DNA of 64,000 bases from Escherichia coli (GCF_003334765.1 NZ_QOWT01000007.1); one strand, 5' to 3'; shown: positions 4,960 to 36,630, counted from the first letter of the stretch. A program made the numbers and translations. Notes: generated by a model from the letters alone, not told the origin.

Positions 4960-5124
4960 CCGATGAAGCGGCGGTAGAAGTGCCGCCGCAACAAAGACAA
5001 ATGCCTGATACGCTTCGCTTATCAAGCCTGCGTATTGATTCATAATTTATTGAATTTGTAGGGTGAATCGCATCCGGCAGGAAGGTAGGGTAACCTGAAA
5101 TGGCGGTCTTCTCACTGCCGCCTT

Positions 5125-23879: not shown

Positions 23880-24226
23880 AATAAATAGCTGACTTATGGA
23901 TGTGCTGGGGATTCTATGTATTTAGCACCGGGTTTGCCATTACTTTTCCTTTTTTTGACTTAATTAGCCTCTGTTTGAGCTGATCTGCCGCTAGATCTTC
24001 ATTTTTTTTGTATTTTTATGCGATTCATTGAATTTCAGCCAGGATTGCAGCTTTACATCGACAATATCTGGATTCTCGAGTATGCAAAATTTTATCTCTA
24101 TGATTTTTATAATTAAAACATATTTTGTGTATAAAAATCATTCGGGTCGGATTGCTGCGAAAGAAATGATACACTAGCGCGTCAAAGTAAGTGCGTTATC
24201 AGTATTCGGGTAGCTGTTGAGCCTGG

Positions 24227-24238
24227 GGCGGTAGCGTG
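24227..24238 (+). promoter_or_regulatory. ops element GGCGGTAGCGTG (within a JUMPstart-type leader) upstream of waaQ
   Basis: Exact 12-nt ops sequence about 50 bp upstream of the waaQ start, followed by a T-run; RfaH-dependent antitermination site for the waaQ operon. Confidence 0.8.
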
Positions 24239-25356: not shown

Positions 25357-26477
25357 TCGTGGCATTTTGCTTATATAAATATTTTCCATTTGGTGGGCTA
25401 CAGCGTGACTTTATGCGTATTGCCTCAACAGTTGCCGCACGGGGCCACCATGTTCGGGTATATACACAGTCGTGGGAAGGCGATTGCCCGGAAGCATTTG
25501 AGCTTATTCGCGTACCGGTTAAATCCCATACTAACCATGGACGTAATGCAGAATATTATGCCTGGGTTCAAAACCATCTGAAGGCACATCCCGCTGATCG
25601 CGTTGTTGGCTTTAATAAGATGCCTGGGCTGGATGTTTATTTTGCCGCCGATGTCTGTTATGCCGAGAAAGTGGCGCAAGAAAAGGGATTTTTCTATCGT
25701 TTAACATCGCGCTATCGCCATTATGCTGCATTCGAGCGAGCGACTTTCGAACATGGTAAATCGACGAAACTTATGATGTTGACCGATAAGCAAATCGCCG
25801 ATTTTCAGAAGCATTACCAAACTGAACCAGAACGTTTTCAAATTCTTCCCCCTGGTATCTATCCTGACAGAAAATACAACGCGCAAATCCCAAACAGTCG
25901 TGAAATTTATCGCCAGAAAAATGGCATCACTGAACAACAAAACTTATTGCTGCAGGTTGGTTCAGATTTTGGTCGTAAAGGTGTGGATCGCTCAATTGAA
26001 GCTTTGGCATCGTTACCAGAATCGTTACGCCATAATACGTTGTTGTTTGTTGTTGGCCAGGATAAACCGCGTAAATTTGAAGTGCTGGCAGAAAAACTCG
26101 GTGTGCGTAGTAAAGTGCATTTCTTTTCCGGGCGGAATGATGTGTCTGAATTAATGGCAGCCGCTGATTTATTAATGCATCCCGCTTATCAGGAGGCTGC
26201 AGGTATTGTTCTCCTTGAGGCAATTGCCGCGGGATTACCTGTGTTGACGACTGCGGTATGCGGATACGCACACTATATCACAGATGCTAATTGTGGAACG
26301 GTCATCGCTGAACCTTTCTCCCAGGAACAATTAAATGACGTTTTACGTAAAGCGTTAACTCAATCTCCATTGCGCATGGCCTGGGCGGAGAATGCTCGGT
26401 ATTACGCCGATACTCAGGATTTATACAGCCTGCCGGAGAAAGCGGCAGATATCATTACAGGTGGTTTAGATGGTTGA
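25353..26477 (+). CDS. waaG: LPS core glucosyltransferase I (GT4)
   Basis: 374-aa [42 protein letters not shown]... Confidence 0.9.
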
Positions 26478-27267
26478 ATTAGAAGAGCCACTTGCCACAC
26501 TCTGGCGTGGTAAAGATGCCTTTGCAGAAGTTAAAAAACTGAATGGCGAGGTCTTCCGTGAACTGGAGACGCGTCGCACATTACGCTTTGAACTGGCCGG
26601 CAAAAGTTATTTCCTCAAATGGCACAAAGGGACGACCCTAAAGGAGATTATAAAAAATCTGCTCTCATTGCGGATGCCCGTTTTAGGTGCAGACAGAGAG
26701 TGGCACGCTATTCATCGACTGCATGATGTCGGTGTTGATACGATGCACGGAATAGGATTTGGTGAAAAAGGGTTAAATCCATTAACTCGCACATCATTTA
26801 TTATTACCGAAGATCTCACTCCCACAATTAGCCTTGAAGATTATTGTGCAGATTGGGCGGTCAACCCGCCTGATGTACATATTAAGCGTATGCTGATCGC
26901 GCGTGTGGCAACCATGGTGCGCAAAATGCATGCAGCAGGGATTAATCACCGTGATTGTTATATCTGCCACTTTTTACTCCATTTGCCATTTACTGGCCGG
27001 GAAGATGAATTAAAAATTTCGGTTATCGATCTGCACCGGGCACAGATACGTGCAAAAGTACCACGTCGTTGGCGGGATAAAGATTTGATTGGTTTATATT
27101 TCTCATCAATGAATATTGGTCTGACGCAGAGAGATATCTGGCGATTTATGAAGGTTTATTTTGGGATGCCTTTACGCGATATTTATAGACTTGAGATTGA
27201 TTTACTTAAAAAGGCAAGGATTAAAGCAGGAAAAATAGAAGCAAGAACAATAAGAAAAAACTTGTAA
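26470..27267 (+). CDS. waaP: LPS core heptose I kinase
   Basis: 265-aa [43 protein letters not shown]... with kinase-like HRDCYICHF motif. Confidence 0.9.
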
Positions 27268-27299
27268 ATAGTATTTTATTACAAAAAGGGATTCTAAAA

Positions 27300-28280
27300 T
27301 TGTTGAAATATAGAAACTTCGTTGCTAAGAAGAAAAATTTATACCAAAACGAAGTGTCGTATGTTAAAAATTTACATATTGCACTATGCTTTGACCGTGA
27401 ATTCATAATGCCAGCGGGTGTTGCATTATATTCAATTATATCCAACAATAGACATATTAACCTTCATTTTCACCTTCTTATATCAGGCATAGAAGAAAAG
27501 GAGTGTTCAGCTTTTTACGAACTAGAAGGTCCTAATACATCAATATCTGTATATTATATAACTGATAAATTTGACATTAATCCGGATACATTAGTTCTTG
27601 GTATTCCTTTATCAACATGTTTACGTTTTTTAATCCCAGAAGTTATTGATGATAAAATAAATAAGATACTTTATCTTGACTGTGATGTCATATGTAATGG
27701 TCCTTTAGATGAACTGGTTGATTATAATTTAAATGCTGATATTGCATGTGTAATTCCAGATTCGCCAGAAATGCAAGAACGTGTAAAAAAATTAGACTAT
27801 GGCATTGAGTTTATTAATTATTTTAATGCCGGGGTTATGTTTATTAATACCAGCGAATGGAAAAAAAATAATATAACACAAAAAGCGTTAGAAATGATCA
27901 ACAGTGGAAAAGTATATAGGTATGCAGATCAGGATGTGCTCAATATTTTACTTAATGGACGAGTGCATTACCTTGATAAGAAGTACAATAATAAGACAAC
28001 ATTGTCAGTACGATGTGATGAAGAACAAAAAAACTTGCCCAACACAATTATAATGCATTATGTTACCCAGAATAAACCATGGTACAAAATATTTAGAGCA
28101 CAAAATTTTGATCATTATTTTTCAAATTCTCCTTGGAAGAACCATAAAAGAAATCTAGCTCCATCATCAAGTGAGATTAGGTTAAAGTCTAAAGTTTTTT
28201 GGCTAGAAGGAAAATATTGTAAAGCCATTTCTTATTATTATAAGTATTTACTTGTTAAATTATTTGGCTTAAAGATTTAG
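27300..28280 (+). CDS. LPS core GT8-like glycosyltransferase at the position occupied by waaS in K-12/R2 clusters
   Basis: 326-aa ORF in very AT-rich DNA; GT8 hallmarks YLDCDVIC, YFNAGVMFINTSEW and DQDVLNILL, clearly paralogous to the two downstream GT8 ORFs. Start codon uncertain (the tool start is a TTG). Confidence 0.6.
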   Translation: MLKYRNFVAKKKNLYQNEVSYVKNLHIALCFDREFIMPAGVALYSIISNNRHINLHFHLLISGIEEKECSAFYELEGPNTSISVYYITDKFDINPDTLVLGIPLSTCLRFLIPEVIDDKINKILYLDCDVICNGPLDELVDYNLNADIACVIPDSPEMQERVKKLDYGIEFINYFNAGVMFINTSEWKKNNITQKALEMINSGKVYRYADQDVLNILLNGRVHYLDKKYNNKTTLSVRCDEEQKNLPNTIIMHYVTQNKPWYKIFRAQNFDHYFSNSPWKNHKRNLAPSSSEIRLKSKVFWLEGKYCKAISYYYKYLLVKLFGLKI

Positions 28281-28293
28281 CTGGAATGAAATT

Positions 28294-29373
28294 ATGAAAA
28301 TAGCCTTTATTGGCGAAGCTGTTTCTGGATTTGGCGGCATGGAAACAGTCATTCGTGATGTTATTACTACCTTCAGGCAACAACATATCCAAAGTGAAAT
28401 TTTTTTCTTTTGTCGTAATGACAAAATGGATAAGGGATGGCTGGAAGGTATTAAGTACTCGTGTTCATTTTCCAATATTCGCTTAGGTTTTTTGCGTCGC
28501 GCGAAACATATTCATGCTTTAAGCAAATGGCTTCATGATTATCAGCCAGATGTTGTTATTTGTATTGACGTGATCTCGTGTTTGTATGCGGCCAAAGCTC
28601 GTAAAAAATCGGGGATTGATGTACCTGTATTTTCATGGCCGCATTTTTCTTTAGATCATAAAAAACATGCCGAATATATCACCTGTGCCGACTATCATTT
28701 AGCCATCAGCTCTGGTATTAAACAGCAAATGATTAGCCGGGGTGTACCAGAATCGACAATAAACGTTATTTTTAATCCCGTTGAGGCGAAAAATTCAGTC
28801 ATTCCTGCACCCGGGGAAGGCGAAACGGCAACATTCATTTATGTTGGGCGCATGAAATTTGAAGGCCAAAAGCGCGTAAAAGATCTGCTTGATGGCTTAT
28901 CACAAGTGCAAGGTGACTGGAAACTTCATGTATTGGGAGATGGCTCCGATTTCGAAAAATGCCAGGCTTATGGTAGAGGATTAAATATTGATGATCGAAT
29001 TGTCTGGTATGGTTGGCAACAACATCCCTGGAAATTAGTTCAGCAAGATATTAAAAAAGTGAGTGCATTATTACTCACGTCATCTTTTGAAGGTTTCCCA
29101 ATGACTCTACTTGAAGCCTTGTCGTGGGGGATCCCTTGTATCAGTGCAGATTGTGTCTCCGGGCCTGTTGATATCATTCAGCCTGATGTTAATGGTCATT
29201 TATATCAACCGGGGGATATGACCGGTTTTGTTGCTCTTCTCAATAAATACATAGCCGGTGAAATTCACATCGCACATGAAAAAATTCCGGCGTCGATCGA
29301 TAAATTTTATCAACCGAAATATTACGACAGATTGCAAAAGATAATTATTTCTGTTATTTCCCGGAGGAAATAA
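28294..29373 (+). CDS. waaB: LPS core alpha-1,6-galactosyltransferase (GT4)
   Basis: 359-aa ORF MKIAFIGEAVSGFGGMETVIRDVITTFRQQ...; GT4 motif FEGFPMTLLEALSWGIPCI. Confidence 0.8.
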   Translation: MKIAFIGEAVSGFGGMETVIRDVITTFRQQHIQSEIFFFCRNDKMDKGWLEGIKYSCSFSNIRLGFLRRAKHIHALSKWLHDYQPDVVICIDVISCLYAAKARKKSGIDVPVFSWPHFSLDHKKHAEYITCADYHLAISSGIKQQMISRGVPESTINVIFNPVEAKNSVIPAPGEGETATFIYVGRMKFEGQKRVKDLLDGLSQVQGDWKLHVLGDGSDFEKCQAYGRGLNIDDRIVWYGWQQHPWKLVQQDIKKVSALLLTSSFEGFPMTLLEALSWGIPCISADCVSGPVDIIQPDVNGHLYQPGDMTGFVALLNKYIAGEIHIAHEKIPASIDKFYQPKYYDRLQKIIISVISRRK

Positions 29374-30392
29374 TGCAGCAGGTTTTTTTCCAGGAGACTG
29401 AGTTTCTCAATTCGGTTATTGATTATAATCATAAAATAGAAGCAGAAAATCTTTGTCTGGATATTGCTTATGGGACTGACAAAAATTTTCTTTTTGGATG
29501 CGGAATATCGATTGCTTCAATATTAAAATATAATGAAGGAAATCAATTATGCTTTCATATTTTTACTGATTATTTCGGTGATGACGATCGCAAATATTTT
29601 GATGCCCTGGCCAGGCAATATAAAACAAGAATTAAGATATATTTAATTAATGGTGATCGACTCCGTTCATTACCCTGCACCAAGAACTGGACTCATGCTA
29701 TTTATTTTCGTTTTGTTATCGCCGATTACTTTTTTAATAAAGCACCCAAAGTTCTTTATCTGGATGCAGATATTATTTGTCAGGGAACTATAGAACCACT
29801 TATCAATTACACGTTTTCTGAACATACAGTCGCAATGGTTGTTACAGAAGGACAAAAAGACTGGTGGGCAAAACGTGCTCATTCGTTAGGTGTTGCTGGG
29901 ATTGCTAATGGTTACTTTAACTCCGGTTTTTTACTGATTAATACTAATCAATGGACGAATGAGCGGGTTTCTGCACGGGCCATTGCAATGTTAAGTGATC
30001 CAGAGATAGTCAAAAAAATAACACATCCTGATCAGGATGTATTAAATATGTTATTGGCAGACAAACTTGTTTATGCTGATATTAAATATAACACTCAGTT
30101 TAGTTTAAATTATCAACTAAAAGAAAGTTTTAAAAACCCAGTAACTAACGATACAGTTTTTATTCATTATATTGGTCCAACTAAACCCTGGCATGACTGG
30201 GCCTGGGATTATCCAATATCACAAGCTTTTATGGCGGCAAAAAATGCTTCACCATGGAAGGATACTGCGTTATTGAAACCGGTTAATAGTAATCAATTAA
30301 GATACAGTGCTAAACATATGTTGAAAAAAAAGCAATATATCAAAGGATTTGGCAACTATCTTTTGTATTTTATAAAAAAGCTAAAGCATTAA
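29373..30392 (+). CDS. waaO: LPS core alpha-1,3-glucosyltransferase (GT8)
   Basis: 339-aa ORF MQQVFFQETEFLNSVIDYNHKIEAENLCLDIAYGTDKNF...; motifs YLDADIIC and DQDVLN; ATGA overlap with the waaB stop. Confidence 0.8.
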   Translation: MQQVFFQETEFLNSVIDYNHKIEAENLCLDIAYGTDKNFLFGCGISIASILKYNEGNQLCFHIFTDYFGDDDRKYFDALARQYKTRIKIYLINGDRLRSLPCTKNWTHAIYFRFVIADYFFNKAPKVLYLDADIICQGTIEPLINYTFSEHTVAMVVTEGQKDWWAKRAHSLGVAGIANGYFNSGFLLINTNQWTNERVSARAIAMLSDPEIVKKITHPDQDVLNMLLADKLVYADIKYNTQFSLNYQLKESFKNPVTNDTVFIHYIGPTKPWHDWAWDYPISQAFMAAKNASPWKDTALLKPVNSNQLRYSAKHMLKKKQYIKGFGNYLLYFIKKLKH

Positions 30393-30555
30393 TACTGATA
30401 ATCTATACTCTAAATAATTCGAGTTGCAGGACAAAAAGCCAGTGGCGTTTTGAGGAACGCTTGCGTTGGCCCTGAAATGCCGAGTAACTCGCCGATGCAG
30501 CACATGCAACTTGAAGTATAACGAGTATATAAAGTAATGATATAAGGATAGCCTT

Positions 30556-32359: not shown

Positions 32360-33169
32360 ATGAAGAATATTAGATACATTGACAAAAAAGATGTTGAAAA
32401 CCTGATAGAAAGTAAAACGTCTGATGATGTTATTATTTTTCTTTCCGGCCCCACATCGCAAAAAACACCATTGTCAGTGCTGCAGACAAGGGATGTTATT
32501 GCTGTCAATGGTTCTGCACAATATCTATTAAGTCATAATATTATTCCCTATATTTATGTACTTACCGATGTTCGCTTTTTACATCAACGGCGTGATGATT
32601 TTTATAAATTTAGCCAGAGAAGTCGTTATACCATCGTAAATGTTGACGTTTATGAACATGCTTCTGAAGAAGATAAGCGGTACATCCTTCAAAACTGCCT
32701 GGTACTACGTTCATTTTACCGCAGAGAAAAAGGTGGATTGATCAAGAAGATCAAGTTTAATATTTTGAGCCGAATTCATAAAGAGCTCCTGATCTCTGTA
32801 CCTTTTTCTAAAAAAGGTCGTCTGGTTGGCTTTTGCAAGGATATTAACCTCGGTTATTGTTCATGCCATACCGTTGCTTTTGCTGCAATCCAAATAGCCT
32901 ATTCGCTGAAGTATGCTCGTATTATCTGTTCAGGCCTTGATTTAACGGGTAGCTGTTCGCGTTTCTATGATGAAGATAAGAATCCTATGCCCTCAGAGTT
33001 GATTCGGGATTTATTCAAAATTTTACCATTTTTCCGTTTTATGCGTGAAAATATAGAAGATATCAATATTTATAATTTATCCGACGATACTGCAATTCAA
33101 TATGATATTATTCCCTATATGAAAATATCCGAAATTGAAGAGCCGTGTGTTTATGAAAAAATAAGCTAA
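32360..33169 (+). CDS. waaZ: LPS core biosynthesis protein WaaZ (Kdo III-associated)
   Basis: 269-aa ORF MKNIRYIDKKDVENLIESKTSDDVIIFLSGPTS...; position between waaY and the last transferase gene. Confidence 0.75.
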   Translation: MKNIRYIDKKDVENLIESKTSDDVIIFLSGPTSQKTPLSVLQTRDVIAVNGSAQYLLSHNIIPYIYVLTDVRFLHQRRDDFYKFSQRSRYTIVNVDVYEHASEEDKRYILQNCLVLRSFYRREKGGLIKKIKFNILSRIHKELLISVPFSKKGRLVGFCKDINLGYCSCHTVAFAAIQIAYSLKYARIICSGLDLTGSCSRFYDEDKNPMPSELIRDLFKILPFFRFMRENIEDINIYNLSDDTAIQYDIIPYMKISEIEEPCVYEKIS

Positions 33170-33221
33170 TATTTTATATGTGTTTATTACGTGTTATAAA
33201 TTATATTGGAGTTGGCTAATA

Positions 33222-34364
33222 ATGATTAAAAAAATAATATTTACCGTCACACCAATATTTTCTATACCGCCAAAAGGAGCTGCAGCGGTTGAAACATGGA
33301 TTTATCAGGTCGCAAAAAGACTTTCGATTCCAGTAACTATCGCCTGTATTCGAAACGAAGGTTACCCAACCTACACAAAAGTAAATGATCACTGTGATAT
33401 TCACTACATTGGTTTTAGTCGAGTCTATAAACGACTTTTCCAAAAGTGGACTCGACTTGATCCTGTGCCATATTCTCAGCGTATTTTAAATACCCAACCT
33501 AAAAACACTGATCCGAAAGACTCTGTTATTGTTATCCACAATAGCATGAAGCTGTATAAACAGATTCGTAGCAGAAGCCCTCACGCGCAGCTAGTTATGC
33601 ATCTTCATAATGCTTTCGAGCCAGGTGAGTTAGACAAAAATGCAAAGATAATTGTTCCTAGCCAGTTTCTTTTCGATTTCTATTCGGAAAAAATGCCTGA
33701 TGCAAATATTGCTATTGTGCCTAATGGTTTTTGTTCTGAATCGTATGAACAAAATAATACTGAAGATTTGAGGCAGAAACTGAACATTGATGCAAATGAT
33801 ACCGTGTTATTATTTGCAGGAAGGATATCACCAGATAAAGGTTGCCTGATGCTTATGGAGGCTTTTAATCAGCTGAATAAGATACAAGATAACCTCAAAC
33901 TGGTGATTGTCGGAGATCCTTTTGCCAGTAAAAAAGGCGAAAAAGCTGAATATCAGAAAAAAGTTCTGGATGCAGCGAAAGCTATTGGAGCGCAATGCAT
34001 TATGGCGGGTGGACAGCCTCCAGAGCAGATGCATAACTATTACCGTTTAGCAGATTTAGTTGTTGTTCCTTCTCAGGTAGAAGAAGCTTTTTGTATGGTA
34101 GCTGTTGAAGCGATGGCGGCAGGTAAACCAGTGCTTGCCAGTCAAAAAGGTGGAATTAGTGAGTTTGTTCTGGAAGGAATTACAGGCTATCACCTTGCAG
34201 AGCCTATGACATCTGAAAGTATTCTCGCGGATATTAAGCGCGTTTTGGCGGATGCTGACAGAGCTCAAATTGCTAAAAATGCCCGAAATTTTGTTTTCTC
34301 AAAATATAGCTGGGAACATGTTACTCAGCGTTTTGAAGCACAAATACAAGACTGGTTTGGTTAA
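33222..34364 (+). CDS. waaK: GT4 glycosyltransferase, WaaK-like (alpha-1,2-GlcNAc transferase of R2/Salmonella-type cores)
   Basis: About 380 aa from ATG 33222 (MIKKIIFTV..., GGAG about 10 nt upstream); GT4 EX7E region EEAFCMVAVEAMAAGKPVLASQKGGISEFV. This is not the GT9 WaaU found in K-12. Confidence 0.7.
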   Translation: MIKKIIFTVTPIFSIPPKGAAAVETWIYQVAKRLSIPVTIACIRNEGYPTYTKVNDHCDIHYIGFSRVYKRLFQKWTRLDPVPYSQRILNTQPKNTDPKDSVIVIHNSMKLYKQIRSRSPHAQLVMHLHNAFEPGELDKNAKIIVPSQFLFDFYSEKMPDANIAIVPNGFCSESYEQNNTEDLRQKLNIDANDTVLLFAGRISPDKGCLMLMEAFNQLNKIQDNLKLVIVGDPFASKKGEKAEYQKKVLDAAKAIGAQCIMAGGQPPEQMHNYYRLADLVVVPSQVEEAFCMVAVEAMAAGKPVLASQKGGISEFVLEGITGYHLAEPMTSESILADIKRVLADADRAQIAKNARNFVFSKYSWEHVTQRFEAQIQDWFG

Positions 34365-34383
34365 AAATTATTGGATTTGAAGA

Positions 34384-34420
34384 GCCTGCCTGAACTTAAT
34401 GTCAGGCAGGCTTTTTTTTA
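34384..34420. terminator. bidirectional hairpin terminator between convergent waaK and waaL
   Basis: GCCTGCCTGA-acttaat-GTCAGGCAGGC followed by a T-run (A-run on the other strand). Confidence 0.7.
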
Positions 34421-35635
34421 TTTATTCCGCATTGCTAACAGTAAACCAACAATCAAGCCAATTGGTTTGAGATCAACTTCCTCGAAGTTACCTCGAATAA
34501 TATAAAAGCTTACAAGCGTTAAAAATAGTAGTAATTGACCATTATAAGGAGTGACGACAACTGTTTTAAACGTTGCATTAGCTGTCTCTTTGATAATAGA
34601 GCCATACAGATAAAGTAAAGCGAGTAGTCCAGCCAAACCCGCTGCAAACCAAATTGACAAAACAACGTTGTGTGGCCCAATGGATTGCCTGAACTTCCAT
34701 GACGGAAAATCTACAACACGCTTATTATATATTGCATGGTAAATATCATCGCCGTAGCCATATCCCTTAAGAGGATTTTCCATAATTAATGTCCACGCCG
34801 TACCTTGAGTACCATTGGTATAGCGATAAGAACTGTCGGTCTGTTGAAGTTTATAAATAAGCCTGTCTTTACCAGCATGATCACCTTTATAGGTAAATAC
34901 ACCCACTGCGGCAACAGAAATAACGATGGAAGTCAGCATCAATAATTTCCACTGACGATTTAAGATTAACCATAGCAGAGTCACTATGAATACTGCCAGC
35001 CATGCACCACGAGACAGCGTTCCTAATAGCAGAAATAAGAAAACTGCACTAAAAATTACGAATGCTATTTTATAAGAGGTTTTCTTGATAAGCCAAAGGT
35101 TTAATAATGCTGGAAACAGAAACACCATTGAATCGGAAATACTACGGTGTTCATAGGTGGAAAATGGCATTATTCCTTTATTATAATCCTGAATATAAAG
35201 AATAAGTTCAACAAGACAACGTAAGCCAAGTCCGGTAACTAATGAGTATAGTACAATTTTACCAATGCTTTCATTATCTTCATCTTTTAATAATGCAGGT
35301 ATAAGTAAACTATAGGCCAAAAATCCTTTAAGTACCGTATTACTGAATTCTTTAAAACTGATTTTCAGATCAGGTGATATAAAAGTAGCATATAAAAGAA
35401 TGAGTGATAGTGCCAGGACACTATAAAAAAGATTATTTTTATAGAGTACTTTAAATGTTCCCGGAGCACGAGAAACTTGATAGATTACCGTAATAATCAT
35501 TAGTATAGATATGATGTGTTTATAACGGGTTATACCATCAAGGAAAAAGGTTGCAATAAAGAGGAATACCAACGCTTTATTCCAGTACGGTTTCCACTTT
35601 TCTTTATTACGTAGCGCCAGCGAGGCTGTTAACAT
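34418..35635 (-). CDS. waaL: O-antigen ligase
   Basis: 405-aa polytopic membrane ORF MLTASLALRNKEKWKPYWNKALVFLFIATFFLDGITRYKHI...; position downstream of waaC; AT-rich. Confidence 0.85.
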   Translation of the reverse strand: MLTASLALRNKEKWKPYWNKALVFLFIATFFLDGITRYKHIISILMIITVIYQVSRAPGTFKVLYKNNLFYSVLALSLILLYATFISPDLKISFKEFSNTVLKGFLAYSLLIPALLKDEDNESIGKIVLYSLVTGLGLRCLVELILYIQDYNKGIMPFSTYEHRSISDSMVFLFPALLNLWLIKKTSYKIAFVIFSAVFLFLLLGTLSRGAWLAVFIVTLLWLILNRQWKLLMLTSIVISVAAVGVFTYKGDHAGKDRLIYKLQQTDSSYRYTNGTQGTAWTLIMENPLKGYGYGDDIYHAIYNKRVVDFPSWKFRQSIGPHNVVLSIWFAAGLAGLLALLYLYGSIIKETANATFKTVVVTPYNGQLLLFLTLVSFYIIRGNFEEVDLKPIGLIVGLLLAMRNK

Positions 35636-35673
35636 TGCTTCTCCACCATCTTAAATAATATATAACGTATTAA

Positions 35674-36630
35674 TCAGGAATTGATTTTATTAAATACCGT
35701 TTCTGCAGTCAGATGAGCAAGATCTTTATCTGGTGCCCTACAAACCACCTGATTCTTCCCATATCCGCCAATTAATCCCGGATCGGTTGGTCCATAAACC
35801 GTGATATTCGGTCGATCCAGTGCTGCAGTTAAATGACTTAACCCAGTGTCTACCGATACCACGAATTTCGCTCCGGCCAGCACACGGGCAACACCTTCCA
35901 GACTCATCTTCGGCAATACTTCAACATAAGCAAATCCTTCCGCCAGTCGTTTCGCCCGTTTTTCCTCATGCGGCGCACCCCACGGAAGTTTAATGCGAAT
36001 CCCTGAATCTGCCAGTAAACCAATCAATTCTCGCCAGTGTTCTTCCGGCCAGTGTTTATCATCACGGGTCGTCGCATGAAGAAATACGGCATATTCGCCA
36101 GCATCTGTAGGCAGGTTCGTCAGAAAATGCTGTGCGATAGCATAATCGCCCTGGGTTTGCGGTTTGCTATAGCCCAGACTTTTGGCAAAAAGTTCGCGGA
36201 TGCGTTCTACGGCGTGCTGCTGTTTTGCAATATGATGTTTACGATTGTAAAACAGGCTGGCTAAAGGTTCGCGAGCGGTTTGCCAGTCCATTCCATGCTT
36301 TACGCCATGCGCCAGACGCGTCACCAGCGCCGCGCTTTTTACCAGCCCCTGAGCATCGATAACTGCGTCATAGTTCTCTGCTTGTAGCGCTTCACGAAAC
36401 GCTTTGCGTTCAGCTTTTATGGGGGCCGAGAACCAGGCTTTACGCCAGCGACGTATTGCCACAGGAATAACTCGCTCAACGGCGGCGTGCCAGGAAGGAA
36501 TCTGTGCGAACCCTTCTTCCACCACCCAGTCAAACTTAATCCCTGGGATTGCCTGCTGGGCATCAGTGAGTGCGGGCAACGTATGGAGAACATCGCCCAT
36601 CGACGATGTTTTAACGATCAAAACCCGCAT
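35674..36630 (-). CDS. waaC: LPS heptosyltransferase I (GT9)
   Basis: 318-aa ORF MRVLIVKTSSMGDVLHTLPALTDAQQAIPGIKFDWVVEEGF... Confidence 0.95.
   Translation of the reverse strand: MRVLIVKTSSMGDVLHTLPALTDAQQAIPGIKFDWVVEEGFAQIPSWHAAVERVIPVAIRRWRKAWFSAPIKAERKAFREALQAENYDAVIDAQGLVKSAALVTRLAHGVKHGMDWQTAREPLASLFYNRKHHIAKQQHAVERIRELFAKSLGYSKPQTQGDYAIAQHFLTNLPTDAGEYAVFLHATTRDDKHWPEEHWRELIGLLADSGIRIKLPWGAPHEEKRAKRLAEGFAYVEVLPKMSLEGVARVLAGAKFVVSVDTGLSHLTAALDRPNITVYGPTDPGLIGGYGKNQVVCRAPDKDLAHLTAETVFNKINS

Follow-up and report, generated by a model that had tools for sequence, protein, structure and literature searches.

Background

[quoted passage not shown] The structure with Gal on KdoII is said to come from Vinogradov et al. 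(1999), and the original paper on the R2 locus is said to be that of Heinrichs et al. (1998). In Salmonella enterica Arizonae IIIA, the slot between waaP and waaB is reportedly occupied by waaH, which, according to Kaniuk et al. (2002), encodes an outer-core alpha-1,2-glucosyltransferase.

The K-12 gene found between waaP and waaB is waaS, and its product is described as the rhamnosyltransferase of the Kdo region (PMC6358824). For the R2 gene in this position a typing paper of 2025 uses the name wabA, keeping waaS for K-12; wabA is listed there as R2-specific, and in Table S13 the gene in the slot is given as 'possibly involved in attachment of a1,7-galactose to KdoII' (PMC13293308). The gene is already known, being named, annotated in RefSeq (WP_000922462.1) and used in core-typing schemes. 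A literature search, with the older primary papers beyond its reach, found no experiment on WabA itself; within the same reach no text gives the Gal-KdoII structure outright, the sole mention being the Table S13 entry (PMC13293308).

Names in public databases are inconsistent: within the protein clusters P0001-P0202, members of the family are called 'General stress protein A', 'WaaS', '1,3-galactosyltransferase' or 'alpha-1,3-glucosyltransferase'. Differing start calls lead to annotated lengths of 290, 319 and 326 aa, and the 90% cluster also holds some RfaP fragments.

Results

The wabA gene within an R2-type waa locus

The sequence analyzed (the window) is a stretch of 64,000 nucleotides from E. 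coli. The features discussed in this section, all on the plus strand, are the following.

24200-24238, plus strand: JUMPstart/ops element, 5' of waaQ (Rfam RF01707, 53.1 bits against a gathering score of 35)
26470-27267, plus strand: waaP (heptose I kinase), the upstream neighbour, from the RefSeq annotation of the identical locus
27178-28292, plus strand: replaceable cassette, without DNA homology to K-12, which has waaS there (from the blastn blocks against MG1655)
27300-28280, plus strand: wabA coding sequence, 326 codons plus stop, TTG start, predicted retaining glycosyltransferase of family GT8
28294-29373, plus strand: waaB (alpha-1,6-galactosyltransferase), the downstream neighbour (NCBIfam NF007396, 592.9 bits against a cut-off of 385; RefSeq)

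The region belongs to an E. coli waa locus of R2 core type, and is 100% identical, at the DNA level, to many complete E. coli chromosomes. In the RefSeq annotation of the identical locus, genes are ordered as rfaQ-rfaG-rfaP-[GT8, WP_000922462.1]-waaB-waaO-rfaJ-rfaY-waaZ-[GlcNAc transferase], with rfaL and rfaC coming next, on the opposite strand. WaaB, WaaO, WaaZ and the WaaK-type GlcNAc transferase all score above their curated NCBIfam cut-offs, and this set of genes identifies the core type as R2. The overall architecture, waaQGP-X-BORYZK with a waaL of the R2/Salmonella type, is that of R2 loci, the ORF at 27300-28280 being the glycosyltransferase gene in the waaP-waaB slot.

The JUMPstart element located 5' of waaQ marks the RfaH-dependent waaQ operon, of which wabA is gene number 4. 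The ops octamer, GGCGGTAG, lies within this element, at 24227-24234. The same octamer occurs 7 times in the window, compared to 1.2 expected by chance (at 4970, 13330, 24227, 31047, 38002, 52573 and 56824), and just the copy at 24227 is contained in a recognised JUMPstart. Genes are tightly packed around wabA, with 32 nt separating it from waaP and 13 nt between its stop codon and waaB. A scan of 26400-29400 for terminator-like sites found none flanking wabA, the sole one being inside waaB, at 29059; within 27300-28280 itself, no other ORF of at least 80 aa and no Rfam family were found.

Between waaO and waaR, a 120-bp insertion is present at 30408-30527, which is absent in K-12 and in the R2 strain MB53. 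The insertion is a dispersed repeat; 5401 of 5426 E. coli genomes contain it, with a median of 3 sites each, and its ends resemble the ERIC/IRU intergenic repeat.

When the window was compared to K-12 MG1655 by blastn, the blocks of similarity ended at 27177 and restarted at 28293, one base before the ATG of waaB. The breakpoint of R2/K-12 recombination falls inside waaP: nucleotide identity is about 90% up to 27177 and about 60% in 27178-27267, so that the last 30 or so WaaP codons diverge and travel with the wabA or the waaS cassette. A second divergent block, at 33125-35730, covers waaK/waaU and waaL, and in natural hybrids the two blocks assort independently (PMC13293308). The G+C content of wabA (29.7%, with a GC3 of 23.5%) is the lowest of the locus, which fits a horizontally exchanged cassette.

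Family membership and predicted active site

A reading made from the sequence alone had proposed that the ORF is a GT8 paralogue of WaaO and WaaR, and all the tests performed agree with it. The product matches the Pfam family Glyco_transf_8 (PF01501) with an E-value of 1.6e-49, over residues 26-263 and model positions 1-251 of 253, and the GT8 C-terminal family Glyco_transf_8C (PF08437) with an E-value of 6.5e-06. Identity to WaaO and WaaR of the window, as well as to their K-12 homologues, is 28-30%, and the key residues of LgtC are kept. The motif pairs from which the paralogy had been deduced align column for column with WaaO and WaaR: YLDCDVIC with YLDADIIC, YFNAGVMFINTSEW with YFNSGFLLINTNQW, and ADQDVLNILL with PDQDVLNMLL. 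By alignment to LgtC, three elements of the putative active site were located.

27678-27686, plus strand: DXD motif D127-C128-D129, predicted Mn2+/UDP site, aligned with LgtC D103/D105
27927-27935, plus strand: D210-Q211-D212 motif of the catalytic centre, aligned with LgtC D188-Q189-D190
28056-28076, plus strand: H253 to K259 of the HYxxxxKPW motif, aligned with LgtC H244 and K250

From the same alignment, H253 is the predicted third metal ligand and K259 the predicted phosphate-binding lysine. The DXD and D-Q-D motifs, H253 and K259 are invariant in both the paralogue and the orthologue alignments.

The AF2 model of WabA has a pLDDT of 83.1 and a pTM of 0.83. When searched against the PDB by Foldseek, its top matches were the GT8 domain of WbbM, LgtC, GlyE and 3TZT, with E-values between 1e-16 and 1e-12. 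Alignments and model together confirm the ORF at 27300-28280 as an intact gene for a predicted GT8 enzyme, and retaining transfer from a UDP-sugar should be expected of its product, given the family.

Within GT8, WabA was evaluated as a possible member of the WaaO/WaaI equivalog (NF011718, LPS 3-alpha-galactosyltransferase), which is its sole NCBIfam match. Membership is ruled out, as WabA reaches 183.6 bits, far below the cut-off of 461, compared to 572.3 bits for the true WaaO of the window. A prediction of the donor sugar from the WabA sequence was also considered and dropped: to our knowledge, GT8 motifs are uninformative on the choice between Glc and Gal.

Relation to K-12 WaaS

The sequence-only reading had placed the ORF in the waaS position and judged it by the role usually attributed to WaaS. 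A framing as WaaS does not stand: between K-12 WaaS (MG1655, b3629, 311 aa) and the ORF no similarity is seen (BLASTP E=1.8), and the family of WaaS is a different one, NCBIfam NF053598 (WaaS/CpsH), which it matches with 179 bits. The possibility had been raised that the reference WaaS is itself the GT8 protein; it is not, and K-12 WaaS has no GT8 match in Pfam. Conversely, WabA was rejected as a WaaS/CpsH member, having no match to NF053598, and its location between waaP and waaB is insufficient for such an assignment. The same reading was sound in pointing out that retaining, UDP-hexose-based GT8 chemistry is unfit for the transfer of rhamnose to Kdo, and the mismatch is explained by the presence of a non-homologous gene in the slot. 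By sequence comparison, wabA and waaS are non-homologous occupants of a single waaP-waaB slot. The rhamnosyltransferase function of K-12 must not be carried over to R2-type strains, and the distinction corrects a naming trap, with WaaS, 'General stress protein A' and '1,3-galactosyltransferase' still in use for wabA in papers as well as databases.

A further occupant came to light through a WaaB-anchored search, in a Salmonella-like contig (L046:7987-8928), where the waaP-waaB slot contains a gene for a 313-aa protein of the Glyco_transf_52 family (PF07922). This protein shows no similarity to K-12 WaaS, and its Pfam domain is GT52, not GT8. Across lineages, the slot is occupied by at least three different glycosyltransferase types (WaaS/CpsH, GT8 and GT52).

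The start codon

The ORF starts with a TTG at 27300, also used as start in RefSeq, in keeping with the non-ATG start pointed out from the sequence alone. The uncertainty noticed there about the start is real, since database orthologues vary in length between 326, 319 and 290 residues. The first in-frame ATG was said to follow a conserved block, and it does: the ATG at 27408 comes after LHIALCFD (residues 25-32).

27286-27291, plus strand: Shine-Dalgarno-like AAGGGA, 8 nt upstream of the TTG, read from the sequence
27408-27410, plus strand: first in-frame ATG (codon 37), rejected as start, with conserved structured residues 8-32 upstream of it

In-frame candidates preceding the ATG at 27408 in the window are TTG 27300, TTG 27303 and GTG 27354. 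In E. albertii and Citrobacter sp. NCU1 the choice is simpler, as a single TTG, located 36 codons before Met37, is the sole possible start; at this same position a TTG is found in 'E. coli E69' and a GTG in S. salamae. A putative ribosome binding sequence (AAGGGA, AAGGA or AGGG) occurs about 8 nt upstream of the start, with AAGGA or AGGG as the equivalents in E. albertii and Citrobacter.

The peptide encoded by the 36 codons upstream of the ATG is conserved among 10 orthologues, with L25, C30, F31 and D32 invariant, and these codons show less non-synonymous than synonymous change. In the AF2 model, this part contains strands at residues 8-16 and 24-32, the latter being the first strand of the nucleotide-binding fold; block-mean pLDDT is 65 for residues 1-10 and reaches 91-92 for residues 11-30. 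The ATG at 27408 was rejected as start, since initiation there would delete the first two predicted beta-strands. Comparative evidence, read together with the model, favours TTG 27300 as the probable start of wabA.

Distribution, orthologues and selection

The gene is found in 503 of 5426 complete E. coli genomes (9.3%), where it is single-copy and chromosomal, in 485 cases with at least 99% identity; this frequency fits the reported R2 share of 8.15%. An intact variant, 94% identical, is present in the R2 locus of strain MB53. Orthologues occupying the same slot were found in E. albertii (78% identity), 'E. coli E69' (79%), Citrobacter sp. NCU1 (63%) and S. enterica subsp. salamae (64%), and also in Pseudocitrobacter; taken together, the Salmonella slot genes, from subsp. 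salamae and some serovars of subsp. enterica, are 63-66% identical to WabA. Orthologues in E. marmotae, E. ruysiae, C. farmeri and C. sedlakii are indicated by cluster names only. The terminal outer-core gene accompanying wabA is waaK in E. coli, E. albertii and Salmonella, and waaU in Citrobacter and Pseudocitrobacter.

Selection was evaluated on five orthologues, given as four genera (E. coli R2, 'E. coli E69', E. albertii, Citrobacter sp. NCU1 and S. salamae). All consist of 326 codons, with no stops or indels, and pairwise dN/dS ranges between 0.08 and 0.20. Judging from these codon comparisons, wabA is a real gene under strong purifying selection.

Some other loci containing related genes have a different organization. 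In Pseudocitrobacter (L049:10001-13128), a wabA-like gene is followed by two GT8 genes, waaB is missing and the terminal gene is a waaU-like GT9. The WabA-like family is expanded in Gilliamella: in G. apicola (L019:4078-10967) a single cluster contains five GT8 paralogues together with a gene for a phosphoethanolamine transferase and a GT2 gene. Homologues from Hafnia, another enterobacterium and Gilliamella were considered as a source of functional indications and found uninformative, as they are either stand-alone genes in islands or members of GT8 arrays. A 483-bp contig (L036), labelled Terrisporobacter mayombei, encodes the first 64 residues of WabA with 98% identity, and is most likely an E. 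coli contamination of a Firmicute assembly.

Discussion

Proposed function of WabA

WabA is very probably a 326-residue, Mn2+-dependent retaining GT8 enzyme of GT-A fold, translated from TTG 27300 and acting on lipid A-core. Through the basic helices of its GT8 C-terminal domain, the enzyme is probably attached to the inner membrane on the cytoplasmic side. Its donor would be a UDP-alpha-D-hexose, from which the sugar would pass, with retention, to nascent lipid A-core. As to donor and acceptor, we propose, as a serious possibility that falls slightly short of an even chance, that WabA is the UDP-Gal-dependent enzyme from which the side-chain Kdo (KdoII) of the R2 inner core receives its non-stoichiometric alpha-1,7-Gal. 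WabA would then correspond in function, though not by homology, to K-12 WaaS, the enzyme that attaches L-rhamnose to the Kdo region. NCBIfam names EptB a "7''-transferase"; the EptB site too is O-7 of KdoII, so that galactosylation and EptB modification would be mutually exclusive, and a galactose at this position would preclude phosphoethanolamine there. The explanation as a whole, KdoII reaction included, stands in our judgement evenly balanced between right and wrong.

Several observations point to the KdoII galactose. An alpha linkage made from UDP-alpha-Gal is the type of product expected of a retaining GT8 enzyme. The other glycosyltransferases of the locus all have assigned linkages, which leaves WabA over, and the finding of wabA together with either waaK or waaU indicates that it is not tied to the outer-core terminus. 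Also in favour are the Table S13 entry (PMC13293308) and the action of K-12 WaaS, the other occupant of the slot, on the Kdo region (PMC6358824). The core oligosaccharide obtained from R2 LOS speaks for the proposal as well: it consists of Glc3-Gal-GlcNAc-Hep3-Kdo and shows no additional hexose on heptose or outer core, while such a preparation keeps one Kdo, and anything on the side-chain Kdo is therefore lost from it (PMC7504096). Counting against the proposal, all the characterised LPS GT8 enzymes we know of (WaaO/I, WaaR/J/T, WaaW and LgtC) use hexose acceptors, and none uses Kdo; in addition, the best NCBIfam match of WabA is the outer-core 3-alpha-galactosyltransferase model, although its score is far below the cut-off.

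The absence of any additional hexose from R2 core compositions also counts against the main competing explanation, by which WabA would be an outer-core alpha-hexosyltransferase, for instance an alpha-1,2-glucosyltransferase like Arizonae WaaH, adding an alternative or extra terminal hexose to Glc II or Glc III and thus giving a minor outer-core glycoform. The nearest characterised relatives of WabA are indeed the outer-core enzymes WaaO and WaaR, NF011718 is the sole NCBIfam family that it matches, the Salmonella genes in the slot are 63-66% identical to it, and the Gilliamella homologues lie in five-GT8 arrays typical of outer-core or LOS extension. An outer-core role would become more likely if waaH were an orthologue of the Salmonella wabA-like genes. 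In the Arizonae locus, waaK is reportedly deleted and replaced by waaH, whereas the Salmonella loci recovered with the gene all have an intact waaK of 381 aa, and a GTDB scan found no wabA-type gene in any Salmonella species representative. A waaK-deleted locus was sought through the GTDB scan, cluster names, the contexts of four Salmonella/Citrobacter clusters and a WaaB-anchored search; neither such a locus nor an Arizonae sequence was recovered in them. Since the R2 outer-core linkages all have enzymes already, and wabA combines freely with waaK or waaU, we regard this explanation as rather unlikely.

A further alternative, which we regard as improbable, is that R2 strains carry wabA as a cryptic or conditionally silent gene, an AT-rich passenger gained by horizontal transfer and making no contribution to LPS in normal growth. 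Such a status would agree with the lowest G+C and GC3 of the locus, with the weak TTG start and with the absence of a product sugar from routine R2 core compositions; it is opposed by the low dN/dS values, by a length fixed at 326 codons across genera, by the intact state of the gene in all sampled rows of the 503 genomes and by the conservation of all catalytic residues. Moreover, the genes are so tightly packed that transcription must cross wabA in order to reach waaB, waaO and waaR. Still more improbable is an acceptor outside the LPS core, such as another envelope glycan or a protein, with the gene simply hitch-hiking in the waa operon. Homologues with 44-47% identity are found in Hafnia and another enterobacterium as stand-alone genes, outside waa clusters; one of them adjoins a gene with DUF3413 and sulfatase domains, flanked by genes of the L25, NA37 and DUF1414 families, an arrangement that we take to be that of the yejKLM region of E. 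coli. Against this, the Escherichia, Citrobacter, Salmonella and Pseudocitrobacter genomes examined all have wabA at one and the same place within the core operon, and its GT8C domain is common to the GT8 enzymes of LPS core.

If the KdoII galactosylation holds, WabA alters the most conserved, membrane-proximal part of LPS in its carriers, which are E. albertii genomes and roughly 9% of those of E. coli. Cross-reactive anti-core antibodies and antimicrobial peptides target this part of LPS, which is also the site of EptB modification. More tentatively, and with some doubt, WabA may be the first GT8 enzyme having Kdo as acceptor, and the waaP-waaB interval a swappable slot of inner-core decoration for at least three unrelated enzyme types, independent of the outer-core terminus and maybe competing with EptB for O-7 of KdoII.

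Comparison with known systems

Arizonae WaaH is reported between waaP and waaB, as is wabA; the likeness is one of slot, not of alignment. K-12 WaaS shares with WabA the slot, a similar size (311 vs 326 aa) and a similarly low G+C. Its donor is dTDP-L-Rha, and both donor and stereochemical course differ from those expected of WabA. Like WabA, it is thought to decorate the Kdo branch non-stoichiometrically (PMC6358824; PMC13293308 Table S13). WabA of the R2 prototype F632/F576 is the same gene in the same slot, within a locus containing waaZ, waaK and an R2-type waaL, a match based on locus architecture and on PMC13293308 rather than on direct alignment.

Among solved structures, the best relative of WabA by sequence is LgtC of Neisseria meningitidis (PDB 1GA8/1G9R/1SS9; E=6e-17), a retaining alpha-1,4-galactosyltransferase of LOS, which is also among the best fold matches to the WabA model (E about 1e-15, TM 0.64-0.76). 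The Mn2+ ligands and the D-Q-D centre are kept between the two proteins, whereas overall identity is about 24%, and LgtC, which acts on a terminal galactose of lactose-type LOS, has no GT8 C-terminal domain of the enterobacterial kind. Closer to WabA are WaaO (WaaI) and WaaR (WaaJ/WaaT), the outer-core GT8 enzymes encoded in the same operon, which have the same catalytic and C-terminal domains, the DXD, DQD and HYxxxxKPW motifs and a similar length. With an identity of just 28-31%, WabA differs from them in having YADQD where they show (H/Y)PDQD, and it forms a clade of its own, apart from WaaO and WaaR, together with orthologues that are 60-80% identical to it.
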